Assembly (NCBI GenBank): GCA_038144955.1
Contig: JAYQOT010000001.1
Location: 37,812-101,811 of the forward strand
Reading direction: 5' to 3'
Source of the DNA: Burkholderiales bacterium
Lineage (GTDB): Bacteria > Pseudomonadota > Gammaproteobacteria > Burkholderiales > SG8-41
Length of the DNA: 64,000 nt
This document shows positions 41,574-59,983 of the stretch, one piece after another. Under the pieces are notes generated by a model. That model was not told the DNA's origin. It saw only the letters and a program-made list of their open reading frames with translations, and searched no databases. Positions within the stretch are counted from its first letter, which is position 1. Each line of letters opens with the position of its first letter. The translations under genes and the position numbers were made by a program.

Positions 41574-41598
41574 CCCGGCACGGGCCGGGTGTTTATTT
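41574..41598 (+). terminator. probable intrinsic terminator of ffh
   Basis: CCCGGC-ACGG-GCCGGG stem followed by TGTTTATTT. The tail overlaps the stop region of the convergent nitroreductase gene. Confidence 0.45.
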
Positions 41599-44677: not shown

Positions 44678-46366
44678 ATGAAAAACTTTTTGCGCCTTGT
44701 GCTCACCATCCAGGTGGCCTGCCTGCTGGCGGCAGAGGTTGCCGCTGCAGGAAATGTAGTGGATGGCTCGGACGCTGTTCGCGAGCTGGTGCGGTCGGGA
44801 GCGATCCAACTGGCACTGCGACGTATTGATGCGTTACAGCCCGCGGATTCCGCCGCGCCGGGTTGGGTGGAATGGCAGCGTCTGCGGCTGCAGTTGCTTG
44901 CCGATTCGGGCGGGCATGAAGAATTGCTGCGCAGAATTTCCGCTTTCCCCCCGCAACTGAGCCCGGCGTTACGCACGGAGTTTTATCTTCTTGCCGCGCA
45001 ATCAGCACTCGTGCTCGGTCGCTTTGCGGAGGCGCGCGATCATGCAGGCCGTGCACTGTGGGCGGACGGGATTGATCAGGCCCGGGTGCGTGCGATCCGT
45101 CTGCTGGTCATTCGCAGCCATGTGCGCGAAGGCAAGGCGGACGATGCCTATCGCAGCATGCTGCGTTTCCAGCAGGACTATCGTCCACTCGAAAAAACGA
45201 CGGCGACTTTTTTTGTGGACGGCCTGCTTGATCTGGGTCTGGTCAAGGAGGCGGTCAATTGGTTGGGCCTGCTCGATGAGCGTAGCGCAACGAAGCTGCG
45301 CCTGCGCCTGCATACCGGATTGATTCCTCCCAAAGAAGTGATGGCACAGGTCCGCAAGCTGCTTGCGAAGGATATGGACCCTCAGTGGTGGCGCGTGTTG
45401 CTGGATGCAGCGCTGCGTCAGCAGGACTCCGCCTCGGTCATCGAAGCGCGGGAACGGTTGTTGAACCATGACGAGGCTGCGGATTCCACTGCTCCCGGGC
45501 TCTGGGAAAGCTATATTGATTTCGCGCGACGCAATGCCAATGCCTATCAGTTGCTTTCGGGGGACGACCAGAGCTGGCTCGATTTTGCCTTGCGCCGTCG
45601 CAGCGAAACCCCGGTGGTGGCGCGTGCTTATCTGGCCTACCTGGCCCGCGAGTCGGCTGCAGATGCAATGCGCAAGCGTGCGCAGGACGAACTTGCTGCG
45701 ATGTTTGCGGCGTCGGTTCTCTCGCGCACCGCGCTGCGTATTTTCAGTGCGTGGCCCGGGAGCGCCTCTGTACTGCCGGTAAATGCCCGTCATGTTCTGG
45801 GTGACCTGGCACTGAAGCTGGGTGATCATCTGCGTGCCCTGGATTACCTGAACGGGGCGCCTGCTCCTATTGATGTTTCCTTGCTGGCCTGGGATGTACG
45901 GCTTGCAGCACTGGCTTTGCGGGCCGGTCGTGGCGGCATTGCCGCGGATATCTCGATGAAACTTGCTGCCGGCAAGCCACAGATCGGACAGCCGGTGCTT
46001 CCGGAATGGATTGCGCTGGCACGGCAGTTGGTCGACCATGGCCAGCCCGATGCAGCACTCGCCTTGTTCGAGGGTGCCTTGCCCCAGGCTGGCCCAGCAC
46101 AGATGCGGGAGCTTTTATCCGGAATTGCGCTAGCCCATGAATCACGCAGTCAACCACTGCTCGCCGCGGACTATCACCTGCGCTCCGCGTCTCTTGCTAC
46201 CGTGGCTGATGGGGCTGCAGCAGAGTCCCGGCTGCGTGCGGGATTGGCGTTGGTTCGAGCAGGATTACGTGAAGATGCCCGTGTGCAATTTGAATGGCTG
46301 CTCAAGAATTCAAAAAATCAGGCGCATATCGAGGCTGCGCGCCGCGAACTGGGGCGTCCCGGTTAG
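44678..46366 (+). CDS. hypothetical exported all-alpha (TPR-like) protein
   Basis: 562 aa. N-terminal signal peptide MKNFLRLVLTIQVACLLAAEVAAA. Leu/Ala/Arg-rich helical-repeat character throughout. No family recognised. Confidence 0.6.
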   Translation: MKNFLRLVLTIQVACLLAAEVAAAGNVVDGSDAVRELVRSGAIQLALRRIDALQPADSAAPGWVEWQRLRLQLLADSGGHEELLRRISAFPPQLSPALRTEFYLLAAQSALVLGRFAEARDHAGRALWADGIDQARVRAIRLLVIRSHVREGKADDAYRSMLRFQQDYRPLEKTTATFFVDGLLDLGLVKEAVNWLGLLDERSATKLRLRLHTGLIPPKEVMAQVRKLLAKDMDPQWWRVLLDAALRQQDSASVIEARERLLNHDEAADSTAPGLWESYIDFARRNANAYQLLSGDDQSWLDFALRRRSETPVVARAYLAYLARESAADAMRKRAQDELAAMFAASVLSRTALRIFSAWPGSASVLPVNARHVLGDLALKLGDHLRALDYLNGAPAPIDVSLLAWDVRLAALALRAGRGGIAADISMKLAAGKPQIGQPVLPEWIALARQLVDHGQPDAALALFEGALPQAGPAQMRELLSGIALAHESRSQPLLAADYHLRSASLATVADGAAAESRLRAGLALVRAGLREDARVQFEWLLKNSKNQAHIEAARRELGRPG

Positions 46367-47118
46367 CGGGCCGCGGTTTTCCACAGATCGCTCAGATATT
46401 CGTGGTCGGCCGTGTTGATCCAGCTCAGCCGGTATTCCACCGGTGAATCATTGTAGGTATAGGCGATACGACGGATATGCAGTGCCGGCTGGTTGCCGCG
46501 CATTCCGAGTATTTGAGCCACATCGGCAGGTGGATGGGCCGCTGAAAGCCGCTCGTTGATGCGCACTACGTTGACGCCGTAACGAGCCTGATAGAGACCG
46601 TAGATGGTTCCTTCCCGGTTGCGGAAGGTGTTTTCATCGATGCGATTGAAACGTTCCGTGGATACCGTGATGTCGTCCAGCACCACCGGCTTGTCAGCCA
46701 GCCGGAGCAGGTTGCGCACCCTTGCCATGCGTGATCCGCGCGGCACGCCCAGATGCATTTCGTCAGCGGTATCAGCTCGTTCGCGCCGGAACGAAAGCAG
46801 TTCGGACACCGGAAACTCCCTGCGTCCGTCTTTTCCGGCGACGTGAAAGAAGTAGAACAGTGTGCGGTCTTCGGTGTGCGTCGCAACAAAGGTCCCGCGC
46901 CCCTGCTGTCGAACCAGGATGCGTCCAGCTACGAGTTCGTCAATGGCCCGCCGTATCGTCCCGATCGAAACGCCGAATTCGGAGGCCAGCCGGGACTCGC
47001 TGGGGATGGCCTCTCCGGGCTTCCACTGGCCTTCGGCAAGCGCCCGGGTAATGCGCCAGTGCACATCGCGGTAGAGTGGAACCGGGGTGAGATTGCCGGG
47101 AGGGGGTTGTTCAACCAT
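46363..47118 (-). CDS. GntR-family (HutC subfamily, UTRA effector domain) transcriptional regulator
   Basis: 251 aa. Winged-helix SESRLASEFGVSIGTIRRAIDELV followed by a UTRA-like C-terminal half. Divergent from the 13-gene locus. Confidence 0.85.
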   Translation of the reverse strand: MVEQPPPGNLTPVPLYRDVHWRITRALAEGQWKPGEAIPSESRLASEFGVSIGTIRRAIDELVAGRILVRQQGRGTFVATHTEDRTLFYFFHVAGKDGRREFPVSELLSFRRERADTADEMHLGVPRGSRMARVRNLLRLADKPVVLDDITVSTERFNRIDENTFRNREGTIYGLYQARYGVNVVRINERLSAAHPPADVAQILGMRGNQPALHIRRIAYTYNDSPVEYRLSWINTADHEYLSDLWKTAAR

Positions 47119-47177
47119 CGGGGTGTCAACTGAACGGGAGCGCGGCAGTCTAGCATGTCATTCATGGATTCATATAG

Positions 47178-47216
47178 GTCATCTAGTTGACTGGGCGGAA
47201 AGGGGCCGCGTAGCAT
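47178..47216 (+). promoter_or_regulatory. candidate operator plus promoter of the accessory operon
   Basis: Imperfect palindrome GTCAtctagtTGAC (47178-47191) overlaps a TTGACT -35 (47187-47192). An 18-nt spacer and TAGCAT (47211-47216) follow. A GC hairpin CCGGGCGC-AGCC-GCGCCCGG (47241-47260) lies in the leader. Confidence 0.3.
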
Positions 47217-47287: not shown

Positions 47288-47569
47288 ATGATTCACCTGT
47301 TGGTTCATGACAAGAAAGACACGGTCGGCGTGGCCGTCATCGAAGGCATCAAGGCCGGCCAGGAAATGGTCGGCTGGGTCATGGAGGATGACTCCACGAT
47401 CAAGGTCAAGGCGATCAACGACATTCCCATCGGCCACAAGGCCGCGCTGCGCGAGATCAAGAAGGGCGACACCATCATCAAGTACGGCTTTGACATCGGC
47501 AAGGCGGTCGCTGACATCAAGGTGGGCGAGCATGCCCACGTCCACAACATCAAGACCAAGCGCTGGTAA
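47288..47569 (+). CDS. UxaA-family SAF-domain small subunit (SuyA-like)
   Basis: In-frame part of ORF 47087..47569. The ATG at 47288 follows AGGAGG. 93 aa. [28 protein letters not shown]...GEHAHVHN matches the N-terminal SAF domain of altronate/galactarate dehydratases, here encoded as a separate gene. Confidence 0.8.
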
Positions 47570-47634
47570 GCAGCGGCTGGCAGACAACGGCGGGCCAGTT
47601 ACGTCGCCCCGAACGAACATATCCGGAGATCAAA

Positions 47635-48804
47635 ATGGTCAACAGCAAAACCACATTCATGGGCTATCGCCGCGAGAACGGCCGCGTCGGTGTCCGCAAC
47701 CACGTCATCATCCTGCCGGTGGACGACCTGTCGAACGCGGCGGCCGAAGCCGTCGCCAACAACGTCAAGGGCGCGATCGCCATTCCCCATCCCTACGGCC
47801 GGCTGCAGTTCGGCGCCGACCTTGACCTGCACTTCCGCACCATCATTGGCGCCGGCGCCAATCCCAACGTCGCCGCAGTGGTGGTGATCTGCATCGAGGA
47901 AGGCTGGGCGAAAAAGGTGGTCGACGGCATAGCCAAGACCGGCAAGCCGGTCACCGGCTTCGGCATCGAACTGCACGGCGATCATGACACCATCATGCGC
48001 GCTTCCAAGGTTGCCAAGGAATACGTGCAATGGGCGTCGGAACTGCAACGCACCGAGTGCCCGATCAGCGACCTGTGGGTATCCACCAAGTGCGGCGAGT
48101 CCGACACGACCTCGGGCTGCGGTTCGAACCCCACCGTGGGCAGCGCGTTCGACAAGCTCGAACCGCTGGGCGTGACCATGTGTTTCGGTGAGACCACCGA
48201 GATCACCGGCGGCGAGAACATCGTGGCCGACCGCTGCGCGACGCCTGAAGTGCGCAAGGAATTCATGCGCATGTTCGACCGTTACCAGGAGATTGTCGAG
48301 AAGCACAAGACCAGCGACCTCTCCGACTCGCAGCCGACCAAGGGCAACATTGCCGGCGGCCTGACCACGATCGAGGAAAAGGCGCTCGGCAACATCCAGA
48401 AAATCGGCAAGAAGTGCAAGGTCATCGGTGTGCTCGACAAGGCCGAGGAACCGACCAAGCCCGGACTGTGGTTCATGGATTCGTCCTCCGCCGCCGCGGA
48501 AATGGTCACGCTGTGCGCAGCCTCCGGTTACGTGGTGCACCTGTTCCCCACAGGCCAGGGCAACGTCATCGGCAATCCGATTGTTCCGGTGGTCAAGCTC
48601 ACCGCCAATCCCCGCACTGTGCGCACGATGAGTGAGCACGTCGATTACGACTGCTCCGGACTGCTGCAGCGGGAAAAGAACCTCGACCAGACCGGCGACG
48701 AGCTGATCGAAGTCATGCTGCGCACCTGCAACGGCCGGTTGACTGCGGCTGAAGCTCTGGGGCATCGCGAGTTTGTGCTGACCCGTTTGTACGAAAGCGC
48801 CTGA
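47635..48804 (+). CDS. UxaA-family large subunit (SuyB-like dehydratase/lyase)
   Basis: 389 aa. Colinear with the C-terminal catalytic part of UxaA/GarD ([10 protein letters not shown]..., [22 protein letters not shown]). The two-gene split is the architecture of (2R)-sulfolactate sulfo-lyase SuyAB. Confidence 0.8.
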
Positions 48805-49007
48805 TCAGGCCGCTGAAAAACCTGCTACGCGGCGCGGGGACTGCGCCGCGCAGCAGGTCAAGGCAATGACCAGAACTCGTTTCAGAAATCAACCGAGCGC
48901 AGCCGGAACAAGAAGGCGGCGAGGCTGCTACGAGACATTACCGAGTAGTAAGGCGAGGAGCAATGTAGCCGCCGACGCAGTGCCGGCAAGCACAGGCGAT
49001 TTATGAA

Positions 49008-50660
49008 ATGAGTTCTCTTCGCGGCGCAGATATTCTGGCGCGTTCACTGGCTGCAGCCGGACTGCGCCGGATTTTTTCCCTATCCGGCAATCACATCATG
49101 CCGGTCTATGACGCGGCGATCGAAGCGAAGCTGGCGATCACCCATGTCCGTTACGAGGGCGCTGCGGTGCACATGGCCGATGCCTGGGCGCGGCTCACTG
49201 GTGAACCGGGCATCGCCATGCTGACCGGCGGGCCGGGGCATGCCAACGGCATCGGTGCGCTCTACACTGCGCTGGCCTCCGAATCGCCGATCGTGCTGTT
49301 GTCGGGGCATGCGCCGCTGATTGAACTGGGCAGCGGTTCTTTCCAGGAAATGCGCCAAGCCGACATCGCCGCCCCGGTGGTGAAGGCCTCGTGGACCGCG
49401 GCCAGTGCCGAAACACTGGGCGATGACATTGCGAAGGCCTGCCGGGTTGCGCGATCGGGGCGGCCGGGGCCAGTGCACCTGAGCCTGCCCTTCGATGTGC
49501 TCGAGGCCAAGGTGGCGGATGGCAAAAAGCGATTGGCGCCTGCCGCCGGTTTTGCGGCGGAAGAAAATCCTCCCGATGCGAGAACGGTGACGGCGCTGCT
49601 GTCCCTGATCAAATCCGCGGCGCGGCCGCTGATCCTGCTTGGTCCGGTGATGGCGCACGCACCGGTTGCCGGTCTCATCAAACGATTGGCTGATGCCACG
49701 GGGGTGCCGGCGCTGTGCATTGAAAGCCCGCGCGGCGTCAACGATCCTGCGCTGGGTGCTTTCGCAGGCGTCCTCGCGCGAGCCGACCTGGTGGTGCTGA
49801 TCGGCAAACAGCCCGATTTCACGCTGCGTTTCGGCAAAGCGCCTGCGCTCGCGGCCGGTTGCCGGTTCGCGGTTATCGATCCCGAGGCCGATGCGCTGCA
49901 GCGTGCTGTAAAAAATCTCGGGTCATCGCGAGTGGAGTTGTCTGCTCAGGCGGACAGCGTGGCCACGGTGCGCGCGGTGATCGCTGCGGCAAAACCGCAT
50001 GCGGTCAAAGAATGGCGGCAGGCAGTGACGGATGCTGTCGCCTTCCGTCCCGCGGCGTGGCGTGACATCGACAGCGGCGAGGGGCCGGTGCATCCCGTTG
50101 AACTGGGCCGTGCGGTGCGGAACGTGCTCAATGCGTCGGCGGATGCGGTATTCGTCGCTGACGGCGGCGAAATCGGCCAGTGGGCGCAGGCCTGCATCCA
50201 GGCGCCGGCGCGCTTGATCAACGGCGTCGGTGGTTCGATCGGCAGCGGCGTACCTTTTGCCTTTGCCGCGCGGATGGCGCGGCCGAAGTCACCGGTGGTG
50301 GCGGTGATGGGCGACGGCGCCTTCGGCTTTCATTTGATGGAGTTCGATACCGCGGTGCGCGAAGGCGTGCCGATGGTCGTGGTCGTCGGCAACGATTCCT
50401 GCTGGAATGCCGAACACCAGATTCAGCTGCGGACTTATGGCAAGGACCGCGCCCATGGCTGCGAGCTGCGCGGCGGTACGCGCTATGATCTCGCAGTGGC
50501 GGCGCTGGGCGGACACGGTGAGCTGGTGACGCGCGCCGCTGATCTGCAGCCGGCGCTGGCGCGAGCAGTTGCCAGCGGCAAACCGGCGTGCATCAACGTG
50601 ATGATCCAGCGCCTGGCAGCGCCGACCGTGACCACCGGCGCGACCGCCGCCGCACACTAG
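49008..50660 (+). CDS. thiamine-diphosphate-dependent enzyme (acetolactate synthase / oxalyl-CoA decarboxylase-like, three-domain)
   Basis: 550 aa. N-terminal Pyr domain with the catalytic Glu (VRYEGAAVHMADAW). ThDP motif GDGAFGFHLMEFDTAVREGVPMVVVVGND. Substrate unknown. Confidence 0.85.
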   Translation: MSSLRGADILARSLAAAGLRRIFSLSGNHIMPVYDAAIEAKLAITHVRYEGAAVHMADAWARLTGEPGIAMLTGGPGHANGIGALYTALASESPIVLLSGHAPLIELGSGSFQEMRQADIAAPVVKASWTAASAETLGDDIAKACRVARSGRPGPVHLSLPFDVLEAKVADGKKRLAPAAGFAAEENPPDARTVTALLSLIKSAARPLILLGPVMAHAPVAGLIKRLADATGVPALCIESPRGVNDPALGAFAGVLARADLVVLIGKQPDFTLRFGKAPALAAGCRFAVIDPEADALQRAVKNLGSSRVELSAQADSVATVRAVIAAAKPHAVKEWRQAVTDAVAFRPAAWRDIDSGEGPVHPVELGRAVRNVLNASADAVFVADGGEIGQWAQACIQAPARLINGVGGSIGSGVPFAFAARMARPKSPVVAVMGDGAFGFHLMEFDTAVREGVPMVVVVGNDSCWNAEHQIQLRTYGKDRAHGCELRGGTRYDLAVAALGGHGELVTRAADLQPALARAVASGKPACINVMIQRLAAPTVTTGATAAAH

Positions 50661-50670
50661 GAACCGACGA

Positions 50671-51384
50671 ATGGAAACATTGCAGGTCAGAATCTGGCGC
50701 GGTACAGAGGAGGGCGGTTTCCAGGATTTCGAAGTGCCGCGGCAGGAAAGCCAGACCGTTCTCGACGTGGTGACCTACGTGCAGCGCAAGTGCGATCCGA
50801 CGCTGGCTTACCGCTTCGCCTGCCGCGTCGGCGTATGCGGATCCTGCGCGATGACCGTCAACGGCGTGTCGCGCTGGACCTGCCGTACCCATGTCGACAA
50901 GGTTGCCGAGGACAACCGGGTGGAGATTGCGCCGCTGCGCAACCTGCCGGTGATCAAGGACCTGGTCACCGACATGCGCGAATTCTTCGACAAGTGGGCG
51001 AAGGCACGCGGTCGTTTCACCGGCAGCGCCACGCGCAAGGAAGCGTTCGCGAAAGTCTCTCCCGAATCGAAGGAGCGCAAGCGCATCGAGGCCGGCATCG
51101 AATGCATAGGGTGCGGCGTCTGCTACAGCGCCTGCGACGTCGTCACCTGGAACAAGGATTATCTCGGCCCGGCGGCGCTGAACCGCGCGTGGACGCTGAT
51201 CAACGACGTACGCGATACCGCGCGCACCGAGCGGCTGGCGGCAGTGGCTGGGGACGCCGGCTGCCACGCCTGCCATACCCACCTCAACTGCACCGAACGC
51301 TGCCCGAAGAGCCTGTCGCCAACCGCCGGCATTGCCGGCCTGAAGCGCGCCGTCCTTGCTGCTACGCTCTCCGGCGAAATATAA
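50671..51384 (+). CDS. succinate dehydrogenase/fumarate reductase iron-sulfur subunit paralogue (SdhB-like)
   Basis: 237 aa. 2Fe-2S motif CRVGVCGSC...C, then CIGCGVCYSAC and CHTHLNCTERCP cluster motifs. Confidence 0.88.
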   Translation: METLQVRIWRGTEEGGFQDFEVPRQESQTVLDVVTYVQRKCDPTLAYRFACRVGVCGSCAMTVNGVSRWTCRTHVDKVAEDNRVEIAPLRNLPVIKDLVTDMREFFDKWAKARGRFTGSATRKEAFAKVSPESKERKRIEAGIECIGCGVCYSACDVVTWNKDYLGPAALNRAWTLINDVRDTARTERLAAVAGDAGCHACHTHLNCTERCPKSLSPTAGIAGLKRAVLAATLSGEI

Positions 51385-51428
51385 AAAATGAATAAAAAAA
51401 TACACTTATATCATTTTTTCGGCGTGAG

Positions 51429-51788
51429 GTGGCGGACGTGAGCCGGCGCAGCGAAGTCCTGCTGTGGGGCGCGCAGCGCGTCAGCGCGATGGTGCTGGCA
51501 CTGTGCGTTGCAGTACACCTGCTGACGATGATTTACGCGGTACGCAGCGGCCTTTCCGCTGCGGAAATACTCGGCCGCACCCAGGGCAATGTTGGCTGGC
51601 TCCTGTTCTACACCGTGTTCGTGCTTGCGGTGGCGGTACATGCACCAATCGGCCTGCGCACCATCATCGGCGAAACGACCAATGCGCGCGGCCGCGGTGT
51701 CGATATGCTTGTCGCCGTGATTGGCATCGCCCTGGCTGCCTGGGGGATGCGTGCGGTGATCGGTGTGTTCGGCGGAGGTGCGGCGTGA
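51429..51788 (+). CDS. complex-II membrane anchor subunit, SdhD-like
   Basis: 119 aa, GTG start, three hydrophobic helices. VAVHAPIGLRTI aligns with the SdhD heme-ligand segment (IHAWIGMWQV in E. coli). Confidence 0.7.
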   Translation: MADVSRRSEVLLWGAQRVSAMVLALCVAVHLLTMIYAVRSGLSAAEILGRTQGNVGWLLFYTVFVLAVAVHAPIGLRTIIGETTNARGRGVDMLVAVIGIALAAWGMRAVIGVFGGGAA

Positions 51789-52132
51789 AGAACGATTTCC
51801 GCTCGCGTAATCATCCGGCGTACTGGGCATTTCTGGTGCACCGGTTTTCCGGCTTGCTGCTGGCGCTGTTCCTGCCGCTGCATTTCTGGGCGCTGGGTCA
51901 GGCCCTGCACGGCGCCGCAGCGCTCGACGGATTCCTGCGCTGGACCGAGCATCCGCTGGTGAAAATGGCAGAAACCGGCCTGGTGCTGCTGCTCGCCGCA
52001 CACCTCGCCGGCGGACTGCGCCTGCTCGCACTCGAATTCCTCGAATGGCGGGAATGGCAGAAATCCCTGCTCGCTGCCGCAGCCGGCGCATCGCTGGTCG
52101 CGGCCCTTGCATTCATGCTCAACCTGGCCTGA
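51785..52132 (+). CDS. complex-II membrane anchor / cytochrome b subunit, SdhC-like
   Basis: In-frame part of ORF 51464..52132. GTG at 51785 overlaps the upstream stop (GTGA). 115 aa. HRFSGLLL and AAHLAGGLR align with the SdhC HRxSG and H-x3-G-x-R heme motifs. Confidence 0.7.
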   Translation: MKNDFRSRNHPAYWAFLVHRFSGLLLALFLPLHFWALGQALHGAAALDGFLRWTEHPLVKMAETGLVLLLAAHLAGGLRLLALEFLEWREWQKSLLAAAAGASLVAALAFMLNLA

Positions 52133-52151: not shown

Positions 52152-53543
52152 GTGAACAAGAACAAGCCGAACATCCTGGTGATCCTGGTCGACGACCTGC
52201 GCTTCGACGAATTCGGCGCCGGCGGCCATCCCTACTTGAAGACACCGCACATCGACCGCATCGCTCATGAAGGCGCGCTGTTCGAGCGAGCATTCCACAC
52301 CACGCCGATCTGCTCGCCCAACCGCGCATCGATCCTGACCGGCCAGTATGCCAGCCGCCACGGCATCATCGACAACGTGGCCCGCGACCTCGCCAGCCAT
52401 CGCCTGCCCAATTACCACCTCGAACTGCAGCGTCTGGGCTACGAGACTGCGCACATCGGCAAATGGCACATGGGCAATGATGGCAAGCCGCGTCCGGGCT
52501 ATGACTTCTGGGTGGCCTACGACGGCCACGGCAACCTCTACGATCCGAAGCTGAACGAAAACGGCACCTACGTGCAGCACAAAGGCTATGTCACCGACAT
52601 CATGAACACGATGGCGACCGACTGGATCCGAAAACAGGGGAACAGGAAGAACAAGAAACCGTGGTCGTTGTGGTTCGCGCACAAGGCAGTGCACCCCGAT
52701 GCGGAGCAGGCAGCCGACGGTTCGTTCAGGATGGATGGCTACCGCCCCGCCAAGCGGCACGAGAACCTCTACAAGGGCTGCGTGTTCCCGAAGAAGCCGA
52801 ACATGCAGAAACCCGCCGAGTTTCTCAAGCACAAGCCGGCGTGGGCTGAGGCCGTGGCCTTGCGCAAGACACCTGCCTCGAAGGTGATGCACGACGCAAT
52901 TCATTCCGGCAAGCAGGAGGAAATCCGCCTGCGCGCGGCGATGATGGCGGCGGTGGACGAGGGCGTGGGCATGATCCTGCAGGCGCTCGAGGAAACCGGA
53001 GAACTCGACAACACGATGATCCTGTTCCTCGGCGACAACGGTTACTTTTTCGGCGAGCATGGCATCGGCCCGGAACGGCGTTTCGCCTACGAAGAGGGCA
53101 TCCGCTCTCCGCTGACCATCCGCTATCCGAAGCTGGTCAAGGCCGGCACGAGACTGAAGGACCTGGTGATCCTGCAGGACCTGGCGCCGACGCTGATCGA
53201 GCTGGCCGGCGGCAGGCCCGGCGTGCATGTGCAGGGGCGTTCCCTGCTGCCGTTGCTGCAGGGCAAGCGGCCGCGCTGGCGCAAATCGCTGTTCGTCGAG
53301 TACTGGGCCGAGAATGCCTACCCCTGGCTGGTCAACATGACCTACAAGGCCGTGCGCACCGACCGCTACAAATACATTCACTGGGTCAATCGTGCGCGCA
53401 ACGGCGAACTGGACGAACTGTATGACCTGGAGAAGGATCCCTACGAAATGAACAATGTCGCGAAGAAACCCGCTTACCGCGGGATTCGTCAAAAAATGAG
53501 CCGGGAGTTGCGCAAACTTACAGCGGATGCTTTGGGTTTATAG
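52152..53543 (+). CDS. Cys-type sulfatase (formylglycine-dependent family), no signal peptide
   Basis: In-frame part of ORF 52107..53543. GTG at 52152 follows AAGGAAA. N-terminus (M)NKNKPNILVILVDDLRFD. C-x-P-x-R maturation motif PICSPNRASILTG and second signature GYETAHIGKWHMG are present. Confidence 0.85.
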   Translation: MNKNKPNILVILVDDLRFDEFGAGGHPYLKTPHIDRIAHEGALFERAFHTTPICSPNRASILTGQYASRHGIIDNVARDLASHRLPNYHLELQRLGYETAHIGKWHMGNDGKPRPGYDFWVAYDGHGNLYDPKLNENGTYVQHKGYVTDIMNTMATDWIRKQGNRKNKKPWSLWFAHKAVHPDAEQAADGSFRMDGYRPAKRHENLYKGCVFPKKPNMQKPAEFLKHKPAWAEAVALRKTPASKVMHDAIHSGKQEEIRLRAAMMAAVDEGVGMILQALEETGELDNTMILFLGDNGYFFGEHGIGPERRFAYEEGIRSPLTIRYPKLVKAGTRLKDLVILQDLAPTLIELAGGRPGVHVQGRSLLPLLQGKRPRWRKSLFVEYWAENAYPWLVNMTYKAVRTDRYKYIHWVNRARNGELDELYDLEKDPYEMNNVAKKPAYRGIRQKMSRELRKLTADALGL

Positions 53544-53624: not shown

Positions 53625-54587
53625 ATGCAACGAACCAGACAATTTTTGATTGCGGTGGCCTTGTGTGTTCCTGTTGCCGTTGCGGCGCAGGGTTATCCCA
53701 GCAAGCCAGTTCGTATCATCGTTCCCTTTTCGGCAGGTGGTGCGACTGACATCGTGACCCGCGTGGTGTCGCAGAAACTCACCGAAATCTGGGGGCAGTC
53801 CATCGTTGTCGACAACCGTGCGGGTGCCGGTGGCAATATTGGGGCTGATCTTGCGGCCAAGGCCCCGGCTGACGGTTACACCGTGTTCATGACATCGGGC
53901 TCCATCGTCACCGCCAACCAGCACATGTATCGAAAGCTCTCCTACAACGCCGAAAAAGATCTGGTTCCGGTGACCAATGTCGCCAGCGGGCCGCAGGCCA
54001 TCGTGGTCAATCCCGGATTCGCGGCCAAGACGGTCAAGGACCTGATCGACATGGCCAAGACCAAACCCGGCAGCGTGACCTTCGGTTCGGCGGGGATCGG
54101 TACACAGACCCACCTTGCCGGCGAAAATTTCATCGCGACTGCGGGACTGAATGTCACGCACATTCCCTACAAGGGCGAAGCTCCGGCGATCAGCGACTTG
54201 CTTGGCGGACAAATCCAGTTCGTGACACCCAACCTGTCAGCGGCCATTGCGCATGTCCGCGCCAAGCGCCTGCGCGCGCTGGGCGTGACCAGTCCCCAGC
54301 GTTCGAAGCAGTTGCCCGAGGTGCCTGCTGTCGCCGAAACACTGCCTGGTTTTGAAAACCTGGGCTGGTTCGGTTTCATGGTACCGACCGGCACTCCGAA
54401 AGCGGTGGTTGCCAAGATCCATGCTGATACGGTTGCCGCGCTCAAGGATCCCGCAATCAACAAGCGGTTCGAAGATCTGGGCATGGTGCCCGTCGGCAAC
54501 TCCTCCGCGGATTTCGCCAAGGCGATCAAGGCGGAAAGCGCGAATTGGGCCAAGGTCATCAAGGCGCGTAATCTGCAGGTGAACTGA
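53625..54587 (+). CDS. Bug-family (TctC-like) tripartite tricarboxylate transporter solute receptor
   Basis: 320 aa. Signal peptide then YPSKPVRIIVPFSAGGATD, the hallmark Bug N-terminus. Confidence 0.9.
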   Translation: MQRTRQFLIAVALCVPVAVAAQGYPSKPVRIIVPFSAGGATDIVTRVVSQKLTEIWGQSIVVDNRAGAGGNIGADLAAKAPADGYTVFMTSGSIVTANQHMYRKLSYNAEKDLVPVTNVASGPQAIVVNPGFAAKTVKDLIDMAKTKPGSVTFGSAGIGTQTHLAGENFIATAGLNVTHIPYKGEAPAISDLLGGQIQFVTPNLSAAIAHVRAKRLRALGVTSPQRSKQLPEVPAVAETLPGFENLGWFGFMVPTGTPKAVVAKIHADTVAALKDPAINKRFEDLGMVPVGNSSADFAKAIKAESANWAKVIKARNLQVN

Positions 54588-54596: not shown

Positions 54597-54637
54597 CGTA
54601 GGGGGCGTGGCACAGCGCCCGGCCCCCTGCGGGTTTT
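54597..54637 (+). terminator. hairpin plus short T-run after the first Bug gene (partial terminator or attenuator candidate)
   Basis: CGTAGGGGGC...GCCCCCTGCG, a 10-bp stem with one G-U pair and a 14-nt loop, followed by GGTTTT. It lies 20 nt before the next start codon. Confidence 0.35.
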
Positions 54638-54657
54638 CAACACCGGAAGGTCATTTC

Positions 54658-55533
54658 GTGAAGGTAGATACCCGTCAAGTCGAAGAGGCGTGCAAGGAGC
54701 TTTACATCCGCGCGCTGAAAATGCTGCCACCCGACATCAAGCAGGGTTTCCAGAAGCTCGACAACTGTGAAACCAATGCCACGGGCAAGGCGATACTCGG
54801 CACGATGATCCGCAACATCACCGTCGCCGAAGATACCAACAACCTGTTGTGCCAGGACACCGGCATACCGATCTACAACGTCGCCATCGGCACCAACGTG
54901 GCCATAGACGGCTATCAGCTGAAACAGGCGATCATCAACGGCTGCGCCCGCGCGACCAAGGAGCATCCGCTGCGTTCTTCGGTGGTGCATCCTACGACGC
55001 GCAAGAATGAGCACACTTCCTGCGGACGCCAGGTGCCGGTGATCAACATTGATTTCGTGCCCGAAGCCGAAACCCTGGCGATCGAGATGATTCCCAAGGG
55101 CTCGGGTTCTGAAAACAACTCCTGGCTGAAAATGGCCATACCCGCCGAAGGCATCGACGCCATCAAGACCTTCGTCGTCGACTGCGTGCTTGAGGCCGGC
55201 GGCAAGAGCTGTCCGCCGGTAATCGTCGGCGTTGGCGTCGGCGGCACCGCCGACCTCTGCGTGCACCTGTCGAAAGTTGCGGCGACGCGGCCGCTGGGAA
55301 GCGTCTGTGCCGACCCCGAAGGCGCGAAGCTTGAGGCTGAGCTGAGCAAGGTGGTGAACAAGCTGGGGGTGGGTGCACAGGGGCTGGGGGGTGATTCCAC
55401 CGCGTTCGCGGTGCATGTCGAAACCGCGGCAACCCACATCACGATGAATCCGGTGGCGGTCAACATGCAATGCCATTCTGCGCGGCGCGCACGTGCGACG
55501 TTCACACCGGCCGGACTCAGCTACGGATACTGA
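54658..55533 (+). CDS. Fe-S hydro-lyase alpha subunit (class I fumarase / tartrate dehydratase TtdA-type)
   Basis: In-frame part of ORF 54607..55533; GTG at 54658. All three cluster-ligand contexts are present: LCQDTG, KSCPPVIVGVGVGGT, NMQCHSARR. Confidence 0.85.
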   Translation: MKVDTRQVEEACKELYIRALKMLPPDIKQGFQKLDNCETNATGKAILGTMIRNITVAEDTNNLLCQDTGIPIYNVAIGTNVAIDGYQLKQAIINGCARATKEHPLRSSVVHPTTRKNEHTSCGRQVPVINIDFVPEAETLAIEMIPKGSGSENNSWLKMAIPAEGIDAIKTFVVDCVLEAGGKSCPPVIVGVGVGGTADLCVHLSKVAATRPLGSVCADPEGAKLEAELSKVVNKLGVGAQGLGGDSTAFAVHVETAATHITMNPVAVNMQCHSARRARATFTPAGLSYGY

Positions 55534-55534
55534 C

Positions 55535-56146
55535 ATGGCCCATTACGATCTGCACATGCCGGTGACTGAAGAACAGGTGCGCAAGCTGCGCATCAACGAC
55601 ACGGTCACGCTGCACGACACGCTGTACGGTATCCGCGATGCCACCCAGATTCACATGTTCGATCATGGTCGCAAAACCCGCTTTGACCTCAAGGGGCACG
55701 CAGTCATCCACACTGCGCCCAACGTCAAGTGGGTCGGCGAAACCGAAGCCCACCCTTCCGGCTATGCACCGATCTGCATAGGTACTACCACCAGCGCGCG
55801 CATGGAACGCTTCACGCGACCGCTGATGGAGCAGTACGGCGTGCGCATCATCATCGGCAAAGGCGGTCTGTTCGCCTCCTCGGCCAAGGCGTTCAGTGAT
55901 CTCGGCGGGGTCTACCTCGCGATCATTGGCGGCACTGCAGCGCTGGAAACCACCTGGATCGAACAGATAGAAGAAGTCGATCTCGATGACCTCAATCCGG
56001 AATCACTGTGGAAATTCCGCATCAGGGGATTCGGTCCGCTGCTGGTAGCGATGGATGCGCACGGCGGCAGCCTCTATACCGCGGTCAATGCAGCCGCAAA
56101 GGACAAACGCGCCGGGGTGCTTGCCGCACTCGGTGTCAAAAGCTAG
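55535..56146 (+). CDS. Fe-S hydro-lyase beta subunit (class I fumarase C-terminal domain / TtdB-type)
   Basis: In-frame part of ORF 55493..56146. The ATG at 55535 lies 1 nt after the alpha stop. GIRDATQIHMF and IIGKGGL motifs are present. Confidence 0.85.
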   Translation: MAHYDLHMPVTEEQVRKLRINDTVTLHDTLYGIRDATQIHMFDHGRKTRFDLKGHAVIHTAPNVKWVGETEAHPSGYAPICIGTTTSARMERFTRPLMEQYGVRIIIGKGGLFASSAKAFSDLGGVYLAIIGGTAALETTWIEQIEEVDLDDLNPESLWKFRIRGFGPLLVAMDAHGGSLYTAVNAAAKDKRAGVLAALGVKS

Positions 56147-56152: not shown

Positions 56153-57868
56153 ATGAAAACCGTCAAGACCGATATTCTGATCCTCGGGTCAGGCGGCGCG
56201 GGGCTGTTCGCCGCACTGCATGCCCACCAGCACAACCCTGAACTGTCGATCACCGTCGCGGTGAAAGGCCTGCTGGGCAAATCCGGCTGCACACGCATGG
56301 TGCAGGGCGGATACAACGTCGCACTGGCCGCCGGCGATTCGGTCGAACGCCATTTCATGGATACGATCGAGGGCGGAAAATGGCTGCCTGACCAGGACCT
56401 GGCGTGGACGCTGGTGGAAACAGCCGTCGAGCGCATTCACGAACTCGAAAACGAACTCGGCTGCTTTTTCGATCGCAACCCCGACGGCACGATCCACCAG
56501 AAGGCTTTTGCCGGCCAGACTTTCGACCGCACCGTGCACAAGGGCGACCTTACCGGCATCGAGATCATCAACCGCCTTGCCGAGCAAGTATGGGCGCGCG
56601 GCATACACCGACTCGAAGAGCATCGCGCCGTCGAACTCATCAGGAACAAAGCGGGAGACGCGATCTCCGGCGTGCTGATGATCGACATGCGCAACGGTGA
56701 ATTCGTGTTCGTGCAGGCACAGGCCGTGCTGCTGGCCACCGGCGGCGGTCCTACGATGTACAAGTTTCATACGCCCTCCGGCGACAAGAGCTGTGACGGC
56801 ATGGCAATGGCGCTGCGCGGCGGGCTCACGCTGCGCGACATGGAAATGGTGCAGTTCCATCCGACCGGTCTGATTGCCGGAGCTGACACCCGTATCACCG
56901 GCACCATCATCGAGGAGGGGCTGCGCGGCGCCGGCGGTTATCTGCTGAACGGCGCCGGCGAACGCTTCATGCACAATTACGATCCGCGCAACGAGCGTGC
57001 CACGCGCGACATCGTCAGCCGCGGCATGTACGAGGAAATGCGCGCCGGCCGCGTCAACCGGCACGGCGGGCTGTACATCACCATGAAGCACCTTGATCCG
57101 GTCATGGTGCGCAAGGAATTCAAGGGCATGGTCGAACGTTGCGCCGATTGTGGTTTTGACCTGGTCGGAGGGCTGGTCGACGTGGTGCCTACCGCGCACT
57201 ACATGATGGGCGGCGTGGCGTTCAAGACCGACTGCACTACTGATCTGCCCGGCCTGTTCGTCGCTGGCGAAGATTCGGGGGGCGTGCACGGCGCAAACCG
57301 CCTCGGCGGCAACGGCGTTGCCAACTCGACGGTGTTCGGCGGCATTGCCGGCGACGTGATGCCGGGTTGGGTCAAGGCTCACGGCGAATACCGTGCGCCG
57401 GACGAGGAGGCCATGGCCGAAGCAGTGGCGCGTTGCCGTGCGCCTCTTGCGCGCAAGGGCGGTGATCTCAATGCAATCCGCGAACGCCTCTACAACGTCA
57501 TGTGGGACGATGTCGGCATCGTGCGCGATGCGGCGTCATTGACACGGGCCTCCGGCCTGCTCGACGAGTTGGAGGCGCAGCTCGATGCCACCGGCGTCGA
57601 TGGAACCAATCTCGCTTTCAACCTGACATGGCATGACTGGCTCAACCTGAAGAACCTGCTGCTGGTTTCGAAGTCGATCCGCTTTGCCGCGATGGCGCGC
57701 GAGGATTCCCGCGGCGCGCACTACCGATCCGATTTTCCCGAGGTGCGTGACCTGGAGAATTCGCGTTATACCTGCGTCAGCTGGCGCGAGGGACGCTTTG
57801 CCAGCGATACCCGCCCGGTGCACTTTACCCGCGTCAAGCCCGGGCAATCGCTGCTGGTTACGGCCTGA
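56153..57868 (+). CDS. FAD flavoprotein of the succinate dehydrogenase/fumarate reductase/L-aspartate oxidase family (SdhA-like, lacks the covalent-FAD histidine)
   Basis: 571 aa. GSGGAG dinucleotide fold. Substrate-site motifs FHPTG, EGLRGAGGYLLN, HYMMGG, GANRLGGN and ESRGAHYRSDFP are all present. The flavinylation context reads KSGCTRMVQGG, where E. coli SdhA has RSHTVSAQGG. Confidence 0.88.
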   Translation: MKTVKTDILILGSGGAGLFAALHAHQHNPELSITVAVKGLLGKSGCTRMVQGGYNVALAAGDSVERHFMDTIEGGKWLPDQDLAWTLVETAVERIHELENELGCFFDRNPDGTIHQKAFAGQTFDRTVHKGDLTGIEIINRLAEQVWARGIHRLEEHRAVELIRNKAGDAISGVLMIDMRNGEFVFVQAQAVLLATGGGPTMYKFHTPSGDKSCDGMAMALRGGLTLRDMEMVQFHPTGLIAGADTRITGTIIEEGLRGAGGYLLNGAGERFMHNYDPRNERATRDIVSRGMYEEMRAGRVNRHGGLYITMKHLDPVMVRKEFKGMVERCADCGFDLVGGLVDVVPTAHYMMGGVAFKTDCTTDLPGLFVAGEDSGGVHGANRLGGNGVANSTVFGGIAGDVMPGWVKAHGEYRAPDEEAMAEAVARCRAPLARKGGDLNAIRERLYNVMWDDVGIVRDAASLTRASGLLDELEAQLDATGVDGTNLAFNLTWHDWLNLKNLLLVSKSIRFAAMAREDSRGAHYRSDFPEVRDLENSRYTCVSWREGRFASDTRPVHFTRVKPGQSLLVTA

Positions 57869-57961: not shown

Positions 57962-58954
57962 ATGTCAAATTGCAGGATCAGTGACATTCGCAATCTGGTG
58001 ACCTTGGTGTTGATAAGCGGCTTTGCACTGGTGCCCCTGGGCGACGCTGTTGCGCAGAATTATCCGACCAGGCCGGTGCGCATGCTGCTGCCGTTCCCGC
58101 CGGGCGGTGGCAGCGACACCATTGCACGCATCGTCGGCCAGAAGTTCGCCGACGGGCTGGGGCAGCAGGTCATCATTGACAATCGGGCCGGCGCCAGCGG
58201 CAACATCGCTGCCGATATCGTGGCCAAGGCCCCGGCCGACGGTTACACCGTCCTCTTCGGCAATTCCTCGCTGGCGATCAGCCCGGCGGTGTTCAGCAAG
58301 ATGACCTACAGCCCGAGCCGCGATCTGGTGCCGATTTCGATGGCTTCGCAATATCCTTTCTCGCTGGTGGTGCACCCGTCGCTGCCGGTGAAGACGGTGA
58401 AGGAGTTTGTCGCACTCGCCAAGGCCAAGCCGAACGCGCTGGACTATGCCTCCTCCGGCGCCGGGACCATGGCGCACATGTCAATGGAGCTGCTGCGGAT
58501 CAAAACGGGTGTGCGCATCACCCACCTGCCGTACAAGGGCGCTGCGCCACAGTCGGTGGCGCTGCTGACCGGTGAAGCACAGGCGGCATTCATCGTGCTG
58601 CCGGTGGCTGCGCGTTATTTCAAGGATGGCAAGCTGCGCGGACTCGGCGTGGCGGCTGAGAAACGTTCCGCGCTCGCTCCGGAAGTGCCGACGATGATCG
58701 AAGCCGGCGTGCCCGGACACATGGCCATCCAGTGGAATGGCCTGCTGGCGCCGAGCAAGACCCCCCAGCCCGTGCTGGACAGGCTCTACCAGTCCTGGGT
58801 CGCTGCGGTGAAGTCACCGGACGTATCGAAACGCATCATTGCCTCGGGCGCCGAACCGAGTGGCAACTCCCCAGCGGAATTTGCCGCTTTCATGAAGGTG
58901 GAAACGGAAAAGTGGGCCGAAGTTGCGAAAGCGTCCGGCACCAAGCTCGACTGA
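57962..58954 (+). CDS. Bug-family (TctC-like) solute receptor, second paralogue
   Basis: 330 aa. Signal peptide then YPTRPVRMLLPFPPGGGSD. Confidence 0.9.
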   Translation: MSNCRISDIRNLVTLVLISGFALVPLGDAVAQNYPTRPVRMLLPFPPGGGSDTIARIVGQKFADGLGQQVIIDNRAGASGNIAADIVAKAPADGYTVLFGNSSLAISPAVFSKMTYSPSRDLVPISMASQYPFSLVVHPSLPVKTVKEFVALAKAKPNALDYASSGAGTMAHMSMELLRIKTGVRITHLPYKGAAPQSVALLTGEAQAAFIVLPVAARYFKDGKLRGLGVAAEKRSALAPEVPTMIEAGVPGHMAIQWNGLLAPSKTPQPVLDRLYQSWVAAVKSPDVSKRIIASGAEPSGNSPAEFAAFMKVETEKWAEVAKASGTKLD

Positions 58955-58972: not shown

Positions 58973-59983
58973 ATGCCGAGACATACACTTGCTGAACTCA
59001 CTGATCTGGCTGCGCGTGCCCTGAAGCGCGCCGGCGCGTCGAAGGCGATGGCGACTGTGACCGCACAGGCGCTGGTGGCTGCCGAAGCGGAGGGTCTTTC
59101 CGGACATGGCCTGTCTCGCGTGGCCCTGTATGCGCAGCACTTGCGCGCAGGCCGTGCCGATGGCAAGGCCAAGCCGAAGATCATCCGCAAGTCGGGAGCC
59201 ACCTGCCTGATCGACGCCAGTGGCGGCCTGGCTTTTCCCGCTGCGGCACTGGCGGCTGCTGAAGCGATCAAGCGCGCCCGCCGTGCCGGCGTAGCTTTCG
59301 TCGGAGTGACCAATAGCCATCATTTCGGCGCTGCTGCGTACCATCTCGCGCCGATCGCTGAGGCGGGCATGGTCGGTCTCGCTTTCACCAATTCTCCCGC
59401 GGCGATCAATGCCTGGGGCGGGAAACAAGCATTTTTCGGTACCAACCCGGTTGCCGCGATCTTTCCGCGCAAGGCGGCAGCTCCGGTAGTCATTGACCTG
59501 TCGTTGACCGAGGTGACACGCGGCAAGATCATGTTGATGGCAAAGGAAGGCAAGCCGATTCCCCTGGGCTGGGCCGTGGATCGGGACGGCCATCCGACGA
59601 CGAATGCACAGGCGGCGCTGACCGGCAGCCTGACCGCGATCGGCGGCGTCAAGGGAACGGCGCTGGCGCTGATGGTCGAGGCATTGTGCGTGTCACTGAC
59701 CGGTGCGGCACTGAGCCGCGAAAACGACTCCTATTTCGAGCCCGGCAACAAGCCGCGCATCGGCCATGCGATCCTCGCCATTGATCCCGCGGCGCTGGCG
59801 GGCACAGACACCTACCACGAGCGCATGGAAGACATGATCGCCGGGATGCTGGTCGATGAGGAAGTGCGCCTTCCGGGCGCGCGGCGGCAGCTGGCGATGA
59901 CACGTGCCCAGTCCGAAGGTCTGGAGATTACGGACGGGCTGCACCAGGAACTCCGCAAACTGGCGGGCCGTACACGGTCCTGA
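58973..59983 (+). CDS. Ldh_2-family oxidoreductase (malate / L- or R-sulfolactate dehydrogenase type)
   Basis: 336 aa. GLSGHGLSR, VTNSHHFGAAAYH and GTNP segments are typical of the Ldh_2 (ComC/MdhII/YlbC) family. Confidence 0.82.
   Translation: MPRHTLAELTDLAARALKRAGASKAMATVTAQALVAAEAEGLSGHGLSRVALYAQHLRAGRADGKAKPKIIRKSGATCLIDASGGLAFPAAALAAAEAIKRARRAGVAFVGVTNSHHFGAAAYHLAPIAEAGMVGLAFTNSPAAINAWGGKQAFFGTNPVAAIFPRKAAAPVVIDLSLTEVTRGKIMLMAKEGKPIPLGWAVDRDGHPTTNAQAALTGSLTAIGGVKGTALALMVEALCVSLTGAALSRENDSYFEPGNKPRIGHAILAIDPAALAGTDTYHERMEDMIAGMLVDEEVRLPGARRQLAMTRAQSEGLEITDGLHQELRKLAGRTRS

Follow-up and report, generated by a model that had tools for sequence, protein, structure and literature searches.

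A split UxaA-family gene pair in an uncultured Burkholderiales bacterium probably encodes a SuyAB-type sulfolactate sulfo-lyase

A 64,000-nucleotide stretch of DNA from an uncultured Burkholderiales bacterium (assembly GCA_038144955.1, contig JAYQOT010000001.1, positions 37,812 to 101,811; hereafter the window, with coordinates counted from its first letter) carries two adjacent UxaA-family genes. These genes are most probably suyA and suyB, encoding the two subunits of the desulfonating enzyme (2R)-sulfolactate sulfo-lyase, rather than a sugar-acid dehydratase. We put the probability of this assignment at roughly 0.86. Sequence and synteny place the pair within the SuyAB family, and sulfo-lyase activity would be expected of its members. 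The same identity had already been given by one public pipeline, in which proteins 98-99% identical to these bear the JGI names '(2R)-sulfolactate sulfo-lyase subunit alpha' and 'beta'. The family, with its two subunits and its part in the mineralization of sulfonates, is also well established, and the pair itself therefore adds little.

The original prediction held that a 93-residue and a 389-residue protein are encoded by separate adjacent genes 65 nucleotides apart, and the coordinates, starts and sizes of both genes stand (Table 1). Both are regarded as real because they are kept in 80 related loci, where SuyA is approximately 69-100% and SuyB 86-100% identical to the proteins of the window. 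These loci were gathered by scanning a genome collection and represent close relatives only. The large protein is 100% identical in one contig of a metagenome-assembled genome (MAG) and 86-99% identical in the 79 further loci. SuyB matches the Pfam families GD_AH_second (E 1.8e-31) and GD_AH_C (E 8.8e-87). SuyA has no Pfam match at E 1e-3, and at a relaxed threshold (E 1) it matches SAF only, with a score of 18.2 bits (cutoff 21) and an E-value of 0.0039. It does match positions 6-75 of TIGR03248, the N-terminal part of galactarate dehydratase (E 8.6e-8), and it can be aligned with the N-terminal regions of UxaA and GarD from E. coli. The 'SAF domain' label given to this protein earlier is thus sub-threshold in Pfam, while homology to the N-terminal domain of UxaA and GarD is clear. 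Judged by these alignments, the description of SuyA as a detached N-terminal beta-clip (SAF-like) domain of the UxaA/GarD fold is right.

The large subunit was compared by tblastn with 72,556 plasmid records and was also searched against 1.84 billion representatives of 50%-identity protein clusters. Its best plasmid match, 81% identical over 100% of its length, is a Cupriavidus pinatubonensis gene located at the end of the series LacI regulator, hpsN, hpsO, MFS transporter, hpsP-like dehydrogenase, small UxaA and large UxaA. This locus corresponds to the hpsRNOUPsuyAB cluster described in strain JMP134 (PMC11382572). Further identities of SuyB are 79% to Caballeronia, 70% to Methylobacterium and 62% to Rhodococcus genes. 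A Paracoccus ferrooxidans gene (68% identity) resides in a locus that consists of a GntR regulator on the opposite strand, the small subunit, the large subunit and a sulfate-exporter-family gene, an order that matches the suyRABZ layout reported for Paracoccus pantotrophus (Rein et al. 2005).

For SuyA, identity to the Cupriavidus, Caballeronia, Methylobacterium and Paracoccus small subunits is 59-62%. When SuyA and SuyB are concatenated, identity is 78% to Cupriavidus, 76% to Caballeronia, 67% to Methylobacterium, 66% to Paracoccus and 56% to Rhodococcus, as compared with 37-38% for three other split pairs and 29-30% for E. coli UxaA and GarD. For the large subunit alone, identity is 35-41% to other split pairs of the UxaA family and 27-30% to the two E. 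coli enzymes. The plasmid matches fall into two groups, with 13 records at 62-81% identity and all others at 39% or less. Among full-length cluster representatives, the closest are 71-72% identical, five lie at 46-50%, and the bulk are at or below 41%. This grouping of SuyB is one by percent identity. The gap between the 81% and 68% identities to SuyB genes and the 35-41% identities to other split pairs upholds the earlier claim that the enzyme is a desulfonating lyase rather than a sugar-acid dehydratase.

Signature residues add to this assignment. Four cysteines are conserved across the UxaA/GarD superfamily, with SuyAB as the exception (Watanabe et al. 2019, PMC6336799). In the present alignments, these cysteines reside in the motifs YGC, GLGCE, CGGSD and LGC. 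The window SuyB and all members at least 62% identical to it have YGR in place of the first, a two-residue deletion in GLGCE, KCGESD at the third and LGN at the fourth. Three of the four superfamily cysteines are therefore lost, and the cysteine of CG(E)SD is the only one retained. This loss agrees with the report of Watanabe et al. and is counted in favor of SuyAB. Loss of cysteines was considered as a SuyB-specific marker and rejected, since the state of YGR plus deletion is common to many non-Suy clusters at 35-41% identity, a Variovorax pair among them. On the basis of the aligned sequences, it is KCGESD together with LGN that marks the SuyB clade, a nuance that is new relative to Watanabe et al. 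A working rule for telling SuyAB from other split UxaA pairs is identity of at least about 60% combined with KCGESD and LGN; the split is not a rule.

The separation into two genes had been read as the architecture of SuyAB, a reading that does not survive comparison with the rest of the family. Large subunits of split length (355-412 residues) account for 66 of the 78 nearest full-length cluster representatives, and only about 7 of those 66 are SuyB-like. A split pair in Bacillus sp. S3 sits among GH95, FucU, lactonase-like and FAH genes in a fucose cluster, and another on an E. albertii plasmid adjoins a permease for 2-keto-3-deoxygluconate (KDG). A heteromeric L-fuconate dehydratase has also been reported (Watanabe et al. 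2019, PMC6336799). Since the family has many split pairs, some of them evidently dehydratases of sugar acids, the split alone is not diagnostic of SuyAB.

Such pairs are precedents for an alternative in which the window genes encode a split sugar-acid dehydratase, of the L-fuconate or altronate type with separate subunits, that makes a 2-keto-3-deoxy acid. The names 'UxaA family hydrolase' and 'D-galactarate dehydratase' that NCBI gives to homologues point the same way. We consider this alternative highly improbable. The identities to split sugar-acid dehydratases and to fused UxaA and GarD are far below the 62-81% shared with suyB genes that are embedded in sulfonate clusters, and three of the four cysteines that sugar-acid enzymes keep are missing. 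No genes for uronate or aldarate catabolism (isomerase, KDG kinase or aldolase, lactonase, sugar or sugar-acid transporter) were found between 41.5 and 63.5 kb. In a comparison with the Protein Data Bank (PDB), the sole match of SuyB was GarD (6u7l, E 2.9e-36), and no SuyAB structure was present in that set.

The gene context was the other argument first offered for SuyAB. Genes expected for sulfolactate supply and its regulation are present, including a divergent GntR/UTRA regulator and, on the suyAB strand, two TctC receptors and an Ldh_2 dehydrogenase. Comparable genes recur around other SuyB-clade members. In Methylobacterium, Rhodococcus, P. aestuarii and strain SC52, the neighbors include HpsN/O/P-like and Ldh-family proteins, tripartite tricarboxylate transporter (TTT) components, TauE and sulfate exporters, and divergent GntR genes are also found repeatedly in the clade. 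An Ldh-family gene lies no more than 6 kb from suyB in Caballeronia, two Methylobacterium species, Rhodococcus, P. aestuarii and strain SC52. The recurrence of Ldh_2 and Bug receptors thus holds, but it is not specific. Variovorax sp. PBL-E5 plasmid 3 (locus L086, 5523-10286) carries a 37%-identical split pair of the cysteine-poor YGR type next to TctC, Ldh-family and hydroxyacid dehydrogenase genes, with no sulfonate-related genes nearby. This pair is a warning against annotating SuyAB from context alone. Neither architecture nor Ldh_2/Bug context is diagnostic, and the assignment depends on sequence identity and the signature residues.

Several points weigh against the SuyAB reading. The JGI names were assigned automatically. 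The SuyB references used here are loci whose gene order matches published clusters, rather than the characterized sequences of P. pantotrophus, Chromohalobacter salexigens and Desulfovibrio. No sulfite exporter, sulfite dehydrogenase or SlcC-type dehydrogenase was found within the window, where the sulfite-disposal genes looked for were TauE/SafE, SuyZ/YeiH and sulfite dehydrogenase. In favor of SuyAB, however, sister loci of the same lineage do have such genes inside the cluster, TauE-like in 11 and SorA-like in two (L081 and L082). The best NCBIfam model for the Ldh_2 protein is L-sulfolactate dehydrogenase, at 217 bits, far below its cutoff of 500. Finally, a hairpin behind suyB makes co-transcription with the downstream genes uncertain.

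The chemistry expected of the pair follows from its characterized relatives. When reconstituted with Fe(II), the recombinant Desulfovibrio sp. DF1 subunits together produce pyruvate and sulfite from sulfolactate; without SuyA, SuyB reaches about 40% of the activity of the holoenzyme, and SuyA by itself is inactive (PMC6278857). For the superfamily, abstraction of the alpha proton followed by beta-elimination has been proposed (PMC6336799). By analogy, SuyB would be the catalytic subunit and SuyA would raise its activity. The Fe(II)-dependent enzyme would take the C2 proton of (R)-sulfolactate and expel sulfite from C3, with sulfite as the leaving group in place of the hydroxide of the dehydratases, and the resulting enol-pyruvate would yield pyruvate. 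The Ldh_2 (ComC-like) dehydrogenase could supply (R)-sulfolactate from sulfopyruvate.

It is also conceivable, although quite improbable, that this SuyAB-clade lyase acts on some other beta-substituted 2-hydroxy acid, for example a sulfonate produced by the dehydrogenase and hydratase genes located downstream. The substrate range of SuyAB enzymes has been little explored, the neighborhood of an Sdh-like complex, a fumarase-like hydratase, a thiamine-diphosphate (TPP) enzyme and a sulfatase is unlike that of described hps and slc clusters, and a haloarchaeon carries a 35%-identical split pair together with TauE. However, a change of specificity is unlikely given 79-81% identity to the SuyB of sulfolactate-making clusters and the same signature residues. 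In two relatives (L022 and L068), suyAB is directly accompanied by tctC and ldh2, as in the sulfolactate-type cluster of P. aestuarii. Sulfolactate itself is also the simplest product of the neighboring module.

Upstream of suyA lie the gene of a candidate regulator and a conserved sequence block. Over its full length, the GntR regulator shares 35% identity with the protein encoded divergently from suyAB in P. ferrooxidans; identity to its Caballeronia counterpart is 43%. Its position and orientation are kept in most of the 80 related loci. A sequence block upstream of suyA (Table 1) is near-invariant in nearly all of 30 aligned loci while its flanks diverge; it is absent from L023 and degenerate in L022 and L025. 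The block overlaps a -35 element (TTGACT, 47187-47192) that is followed 18 nucleotides downstream by a -10 element (TAGCAT, 47211-47216). This arrangement suggests that the block is probably the suyAB promoter combined with the operator of the divergent GntR/HutC regulator, such that suyAB transcription would start at a conserved promoter whose -35 element overlaps the GntR operator. The motif occurs once in the window, where the chance expectation is 0 matches. It was not found elsewhere in the window, and a single regulon is hence not demonstrable from it.

Immediately behind suyB is a GC-rich hairpin that could serve as an attenuator, a partial terminator or an RNA-stabilizing stem. A stable stem of different sequence, often followed by a T-run, occupies this place in close relatives; in relatives further removed, 0-39 nucleotides separate suyB from the next gene. 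An earlier description of the pair, the Ldh_2 gene and the Bug receptors as members of the same operon is therefore correct in part. The Ldh_2 gene and two TctC/Bug genes do lie downstream on the same strand, but at a distance of 4.8-10 kb and beyond both the hairpin and intervening genes, and their co-transcription with suyAB is a possibility only.

Table 1. Predicted genes and regulatory elements of the suyAB region (coordinates of the window; E-values and bit scores from profile searches).
Feature	Coordinates	Strand	Evidence and remarks
GntR/HutC-type regulator (helix-turn-helix + UTRA), candidate SuyR	46363..47118	-	GntR E 1.8e-18, UTRA E 1.2e-27
Probable promoter/operator region: block ATTCATATAGGTCAT(C/A)TAGTTGACT of ~25 bp, with -35 and -10 elements	47168..47216	+	Upstream of suyA; promoter-like match
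suyA, small subunit	47288..47569	+	ATG start, 93 aa, 10.3 kDa, AAGGAGG 7 nt upstream
suyB, predicted large catalytic subunit	47635..48804	+	ATG start, 389 aa, 42.1 kDa, GGAGA upstream
GC-rich hairpin after suyB	48821..48857	+	Without T-run; folded 48800-48900 (101 nt), minimum free energy -45.2 kcal/mol, z -3.75
TPP enzyme, acetolactate-synthase / 2-hydroxyacyl-CoA-lyase-like	49008..50660	+	Pfam TPP_enzyme_N/M/C
SdhB/FrdB-like iron-sulfur subunit	50671..51384	+	Fer2_3 + Fer4; TIGR00384 200 bits vs cutoff 88
Membrane anchor 1 (Sdh_cyt)	51429..51788	+	PF01127 E 2.7e-8; 43-58% identity to anchors in L084, L090-L096
Membrane anchor 2 (Sdh_cyt)	51785..52132	+	PF01127 E 1.1e-11; GTG start overlaps previous stop (GTGA)
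Cys-type sulfatase (CSPNR motif)	52152..53543	+	Pfam Sulfatase E 2.5e-45; GTG 52152 start likelier than TTG 52107
TctC/Bug periplasmic receptor 1	53625..54587	+	TctC E 5e-75; position conserved in related loci
Two-subunit class I fumarase/tartrate-dehydratase-like hydro-lyase	alpha 54607..55533, beta 55493..56146	+	Fumerase E 9.7e-87, Fumerase_C E 1.5e-29
SdhA/FrdA-like flavoprotein	56153..57868	+	FAD_binding_2 + Succ_DH_flav_C
TctC/Bug periplasmic receptor 2	57962..58954	+	TctC E 1.1e-69
Ldh_2 oxidoreductase, candidate ComC-type (R)-sulfolactate dehydrogenase / sulfopyruvate reductase	58973..59983	+	Ldh_2 E 4.9e-98

The genes from the TPP enzyme to ldh2 are closely spaced, with gaps of -41 to 93 nucleotides, and a 203-nucleotide gap separates suyB from the TPP gene. 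The TPP enzyme reaches no NCBIfam model at cutoff, and its candidacy as Xsc was rejected in that comparison. Its gene is found in approximately 60% of related loci, and orthologues lie beside the same downstream module in Methylobacterium (56% identity) and Sulfitobacter THAF37 (46%). The SdhB-like protein has homologues at 54-65% identity in six clusters of alpha- and gammaproteobacteria. With the flavoprotein, this iron-sulfur subunit and two membrane anchors, the composition of a complex II is complete. An antisense open reading frame at 51411..52112 (233 residues) masks the two anchors, but it has no family match and is considered spurious. The sulfatase has no obvious signal peptide and is absent from many related loci.

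The fumarase-like alpha and beta subunits score 224 and 108 bits against chains A and B of PDB entry 7xky, and they are 67% and 60% identical to the Methylobacterium pair. They keep three cluster cysteines (CQDTG, CPP, QCH) and the motifs TTSARM and GKGG. Because the anion-binding residues of the beta subunit (TTSARM, GKGG, RD) are unchanged, they are uninformative as to whether the substrate is a carboxylate or a sulfonate. Among PDB entries, the Ldh_2 protein scores best against DpkA (201 bits), with the sulfolactate dehydrogenase 2x06 at 156 bits, and neither these scores nor the NCBIfam score single out a substrate for it. Its identity to Ldh genes from suyAB regions is 52% in Caballeronia, 46% in Methylobacterium, 43% in Paracoccus and 37% in Rhodococcus. 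Three of these genes are no more than 6 kb from suyB, and that of Paracoccus is about 14 kb away on the same plasmid.

Other genes adjoin this region. A TauD/TfdA-family dioxygenase gene (60601-61497) begins 617 nucleotides after ldh2, and an FMN-dependent alpha-hydroxyacid dehydrogenase gene (62254-63525, minus strand; FMN_dh E 1e-126) is located at the end of the cluster and also lies beside a TauD-family gene in L022. The product of a nitroreductase-family gene (41593-42441, minus strand) resembles nitroreductases whose genes adjoin the Sdh-like/fumarase-like module in Methylobacterium nodulans (L093; 55% identity) and Sulfitobacter THAF37 (L095; 49%). In the window, rimM-trmD-rplS and a tetratricopeptide-repeat gene stand between this gene and the cluster, and the link may be due to chance. 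The remainder of the window is core chromosome, with lpxC, secA, argJ, ffh, rimM-trmD-rplS and a region that, judged from gene order only, is probably the cell-division (dcw) region.

Across the 80 related loci, the common order is a GntR gene on the minus strand, suyA, suyB, the TPP gene, the sdhB-like gene and anchors, a sulfatase or TauE-like gene, tctC, the fumarase-like alpha and beta genes, the sdhA-like gene, a second tctC and ldh2. The TPP gene and the sulfatase gene are each optional. Eleven loci without a sulfatase have the TauE-like gene, which is located after the sdhB-like gene and anchors. In L022 and L068 the module is absent, and tctC (receptor 2) and ldh2 directly follow suyB. 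In L081 and L082, the gene that follows suyB encodes the SorA-like molybdoenzyme. Eleven syntenic MAG records (L011, L023, L032, L045, L054, L059, L060, L065, L068, L074 and L077) bear taxonomic titles that look wrong, among them 'uncultured Streptomycetaceae', 'Streptomyces sp.', 'Chitinophaga pinensis' and 'Bordetella parapertussis'; their SuyB proteins are 87-98% identical to that of the window.

SuyB is unusually well conserved within the lineage, at 86-100% identity as compared with 67-86% for TrmD, 42-76% for RimM and 76-98% for L19. The GntR regulator (57-92%) and SuyA (69-99% in loci L003-L082) drift more than SuyB. Because suyB is more conserved than these neighboring translation-related genes, sulfonate use is likely to be a core trait of this lineage, which comprises abundant uncultured freshwater and soil Burkholderiales.

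The module downstream of suyAB is also found in other bacteria. Plasmids of Methylobacterium oryzae and Methylobacterium radiotolerans carry, in a different order, genes for an SdhB-like subunit, two anchors, fumarase-like alpha and beta subunits, an SdhA-like subunit, a TPP enzyme, SuyAB and an Ldh-family protein. TauE joins this set in both species, and M. oryzae additionally has a SorA-like oxidoreductase and a sulfate exporter. The SdhA-like protein of the window belongs to a clade represented in 17 plasmid records at 48-70% identity, compared with approximately 34% identity to canonical SdhA. In eight of the nine annotated contexts of this clade, genes for TauE/SafE, YeiH/sulfate-exporter or sulfite oxidase proteins are located within 10 kb.

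Members of the SdhA-like clade depart from complex II in two features. In all eight aligned members (the window, L084, L090-L094 and L097), TRSHTVSAQGG is replaced by TR----MVQGG and Thr254, part of the substrate clamp, by Glu. The four-residue deletion removes the histidine (E. coli SdhA His45) to which flavin adenine dinucleotide (FAD) is covalently attached. Other residues that bind the substrate, namely His242, Arg286, His354 and Arg399, are kept. Because the covalent-FAD histidine and Thr254 are missing in all eight, these proteins are not canonical succinate dehydrogenases. One aligned member is found on a plasmid of the haloarchaeon Natribaculum luteum (L097, 4488-11456), next to an SdhB-like protein, an ArgH-like lyase of the class II fumarase superfamily, TauE/SafE and a split UxaA pair. 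This pair is 35% identical to the window SuyB and lacks the KCGESD motif. The haloarchaeal cluster may represent the same pathway in a distant, non-orthologous form. It also hints that desulfonation extends to some of the distant split UxaA pairs.

Among sulfonates, sulfolactate is the counterpart of malate and 3-sulfopropanoate that of succinate. This relationship suggests a tentative scheme, to which we give somewhat less than even odds, in which suyAB would complete a conserved and as yet undescribed pathway for the breakdown of 3-sulfopropanoate or of a closely similar saturated sulfonate. The membrane-bound complex-II-like dehydrogenase, with non-covalent FAD, would oxidize 3-sulfopropanoate to 3-sulfoacrylate. 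The two-subunit class I fumarase-like hydratase would then add water to give (R)-sulfolactate, and SuyAB would split this compound into pyruvate and sulfite. Ldh_2 would connect the route to sulfopyruvate. Judged from gene context, this sequence of steps is plausible.

Two types of hydratase accompany the dehydrogenase. Type 1 is that of the window and also of three Methylobacterium records (67% identity for FumN) and Rhodococcus jostii (47%); each of these four plasmid records has a SuyB-clade gene on the replicon that bears the hydratase. Type 2, whose identity to the hydratase of the window is approximately 31% in the alpha and 27% in the beta subunit, is paired with the same dehydrogenase in Paracoccus, Pseudomonas, Sulfitobacter, M. 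nodulans and Pseudorhizobium. Type 2 clusters contain exporters and have no adjacent suyAB, and that of Pseudomonas also includes a CoA-acylating dehydrogenase of the malonate-semialdehyde type. From this context, type 2 enzymes may hydrate the sulfonate-bearing carbon instead, such that an unstable alpha-hydroxysulfonate would decompose spontaneously to malonate semialdehyde and sulfite.

An alternative is that suyAB is self-contained and that the Sdh-like and fumarase-like genes belong to an unrelated neighboring dicarboxylate pathway, such as one for methylsuccinate/mesaconate or tartrate. The strong hairpin directly 3' of suyB, the operator motif upstream of suyA only, and the occurrence of suyAB without the module in L022 and L068 are all in keeping with this explanation, and unrelated genes are often juxtaposed in genomes rich in Bug receptors. 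It is nevertheless doubtful, although it deserves more weight than either alternative for the lyase itself. The association of suyAB with the module recurs with another gene order in the two Methylobacterium species, and in the haloarchaeon with a non-homologous lyase. Sulfite or sulfate exporters or a sulfite oxidase accompany the Sdh-like clade in almost every annotated context, as described above, and suyB and the sdhB-like gene are only 0-4 nucleotides apart in some relatives.

Other observations count against the proposed 3-sulfopropanoate route. A covalent flavin is normally needed for succinate oxidation, and the missing covalent FAD therefore argues for caution about 3-sulfopropanoate oxidation. 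The SdhA-like complex could possibly operate in the reductive direction or on an amine substrate as in NadB. Nor does the route account for the TPP enzyme, the sulfatase or the TauD-family gene. Three other substrates for the module were considered and set aside. Nothing links sulfosuccinate to sulfolactate; oxidation of L-cysteate by a NadB-type reaction, prompted by the non-covalent FAD, leaves the hydratase unexplained; and non-sulfonated dicarboxylates were dropped on the association with exporters.

3-Sulfopropanoate is excreted by gut and soil bacteria. Its degradation is not known to have been reported apart from an unpublished thesis, cited in PMC11489063, which proposes conversion of homotaurine via 3-sulfopropanoate and sulfoacrylate to sulfolactate in Roseovarius nubinhibens with no genes attached. 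Sulfoacrylate is otherwise known only from the biosynthesis of coenzyme M in bacteria (PMC9457059). Literature searches on sulfoacrylate and sulfopropanoate found no gene assignment. The cluster is thus a concrete candidate gene set for 3-sulfopropanoate degradation, a pathway with no published genes. The same modules are present in cultured strains of Methylobacterium, Paracoccus and Pseudomonas, which makes the idea directly testable.

Among known systems, the fused enzymes UxaA (altronate dehydratase) and GarD (galactarate dehydratase) belong to the same fold family as SuyB and probably share its chemistry, but each is a single chain of about 500 residues with four conserved cysteines and hydroxide rather than sulfite as the leaving group, and identity to SuyB is 27-30%. 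Split sugar-acid dehydratases have the same subunit sizes and Pfam domains as the window pair, at 37-38% identity. They keep the YGC, GLGCE and LGC cysteines and have sugar-acid gene neighbors, and the window pair does neither.

The closest counterparts are the SuyAB enzymes (EC 4.4.1.24) of Paracoccus pantotrophus NKNCYSA, Cupriavidus pinatubonensis JMP134 and Desulfovibrio sp. DF1. As in these systems, subunits of approximately 10 and 42 kDa are encoded by adjacent genes and carry the same signature residues. Large-subunit identity to corresponding loci is 68-81%, and Ldh_2 and TTT genes are neighbors. The divergent GntR regulator is shared with the Paracoccus suy locus. Unlike published SuyAB systems, the window has no hpsNOP, slcC, suyZ or tauE, and its host is an uncultured freshwater or soil member of the Burkholderiales. 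It also differs from published suy, hps and slc clusters in that suyAB is embedded with a complex-II-like dehydrogenase and a fumarase-like hydratase.

The sulfolactate cluster of Chromohalobacter salexigens reportedly consists of SlcHFG (a TTT system), SlcC, ComC and SuyAB (Denger and Cook 2010). A layout of this type is also given in PMC12421959. The window departs from it in having only orphan TctC receptors (no TctA or TctB), in lacking an SlcC-type hydroxyacid dehydrogenase and a sulfate exporter, and in the approximately 9 kb of other genes that lie between suyB and the second tctC with ldh2. The P. aestuarii plasmid p296221, which is of the C. salexigens type, has the same arrangement as the window of a GntR gene on the minus strand, suyA, suyB and TctC, with an Ldh-family gene further along. 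In the relatives L022 and L068, suyAB, tctC and ldh2 are contiguous.

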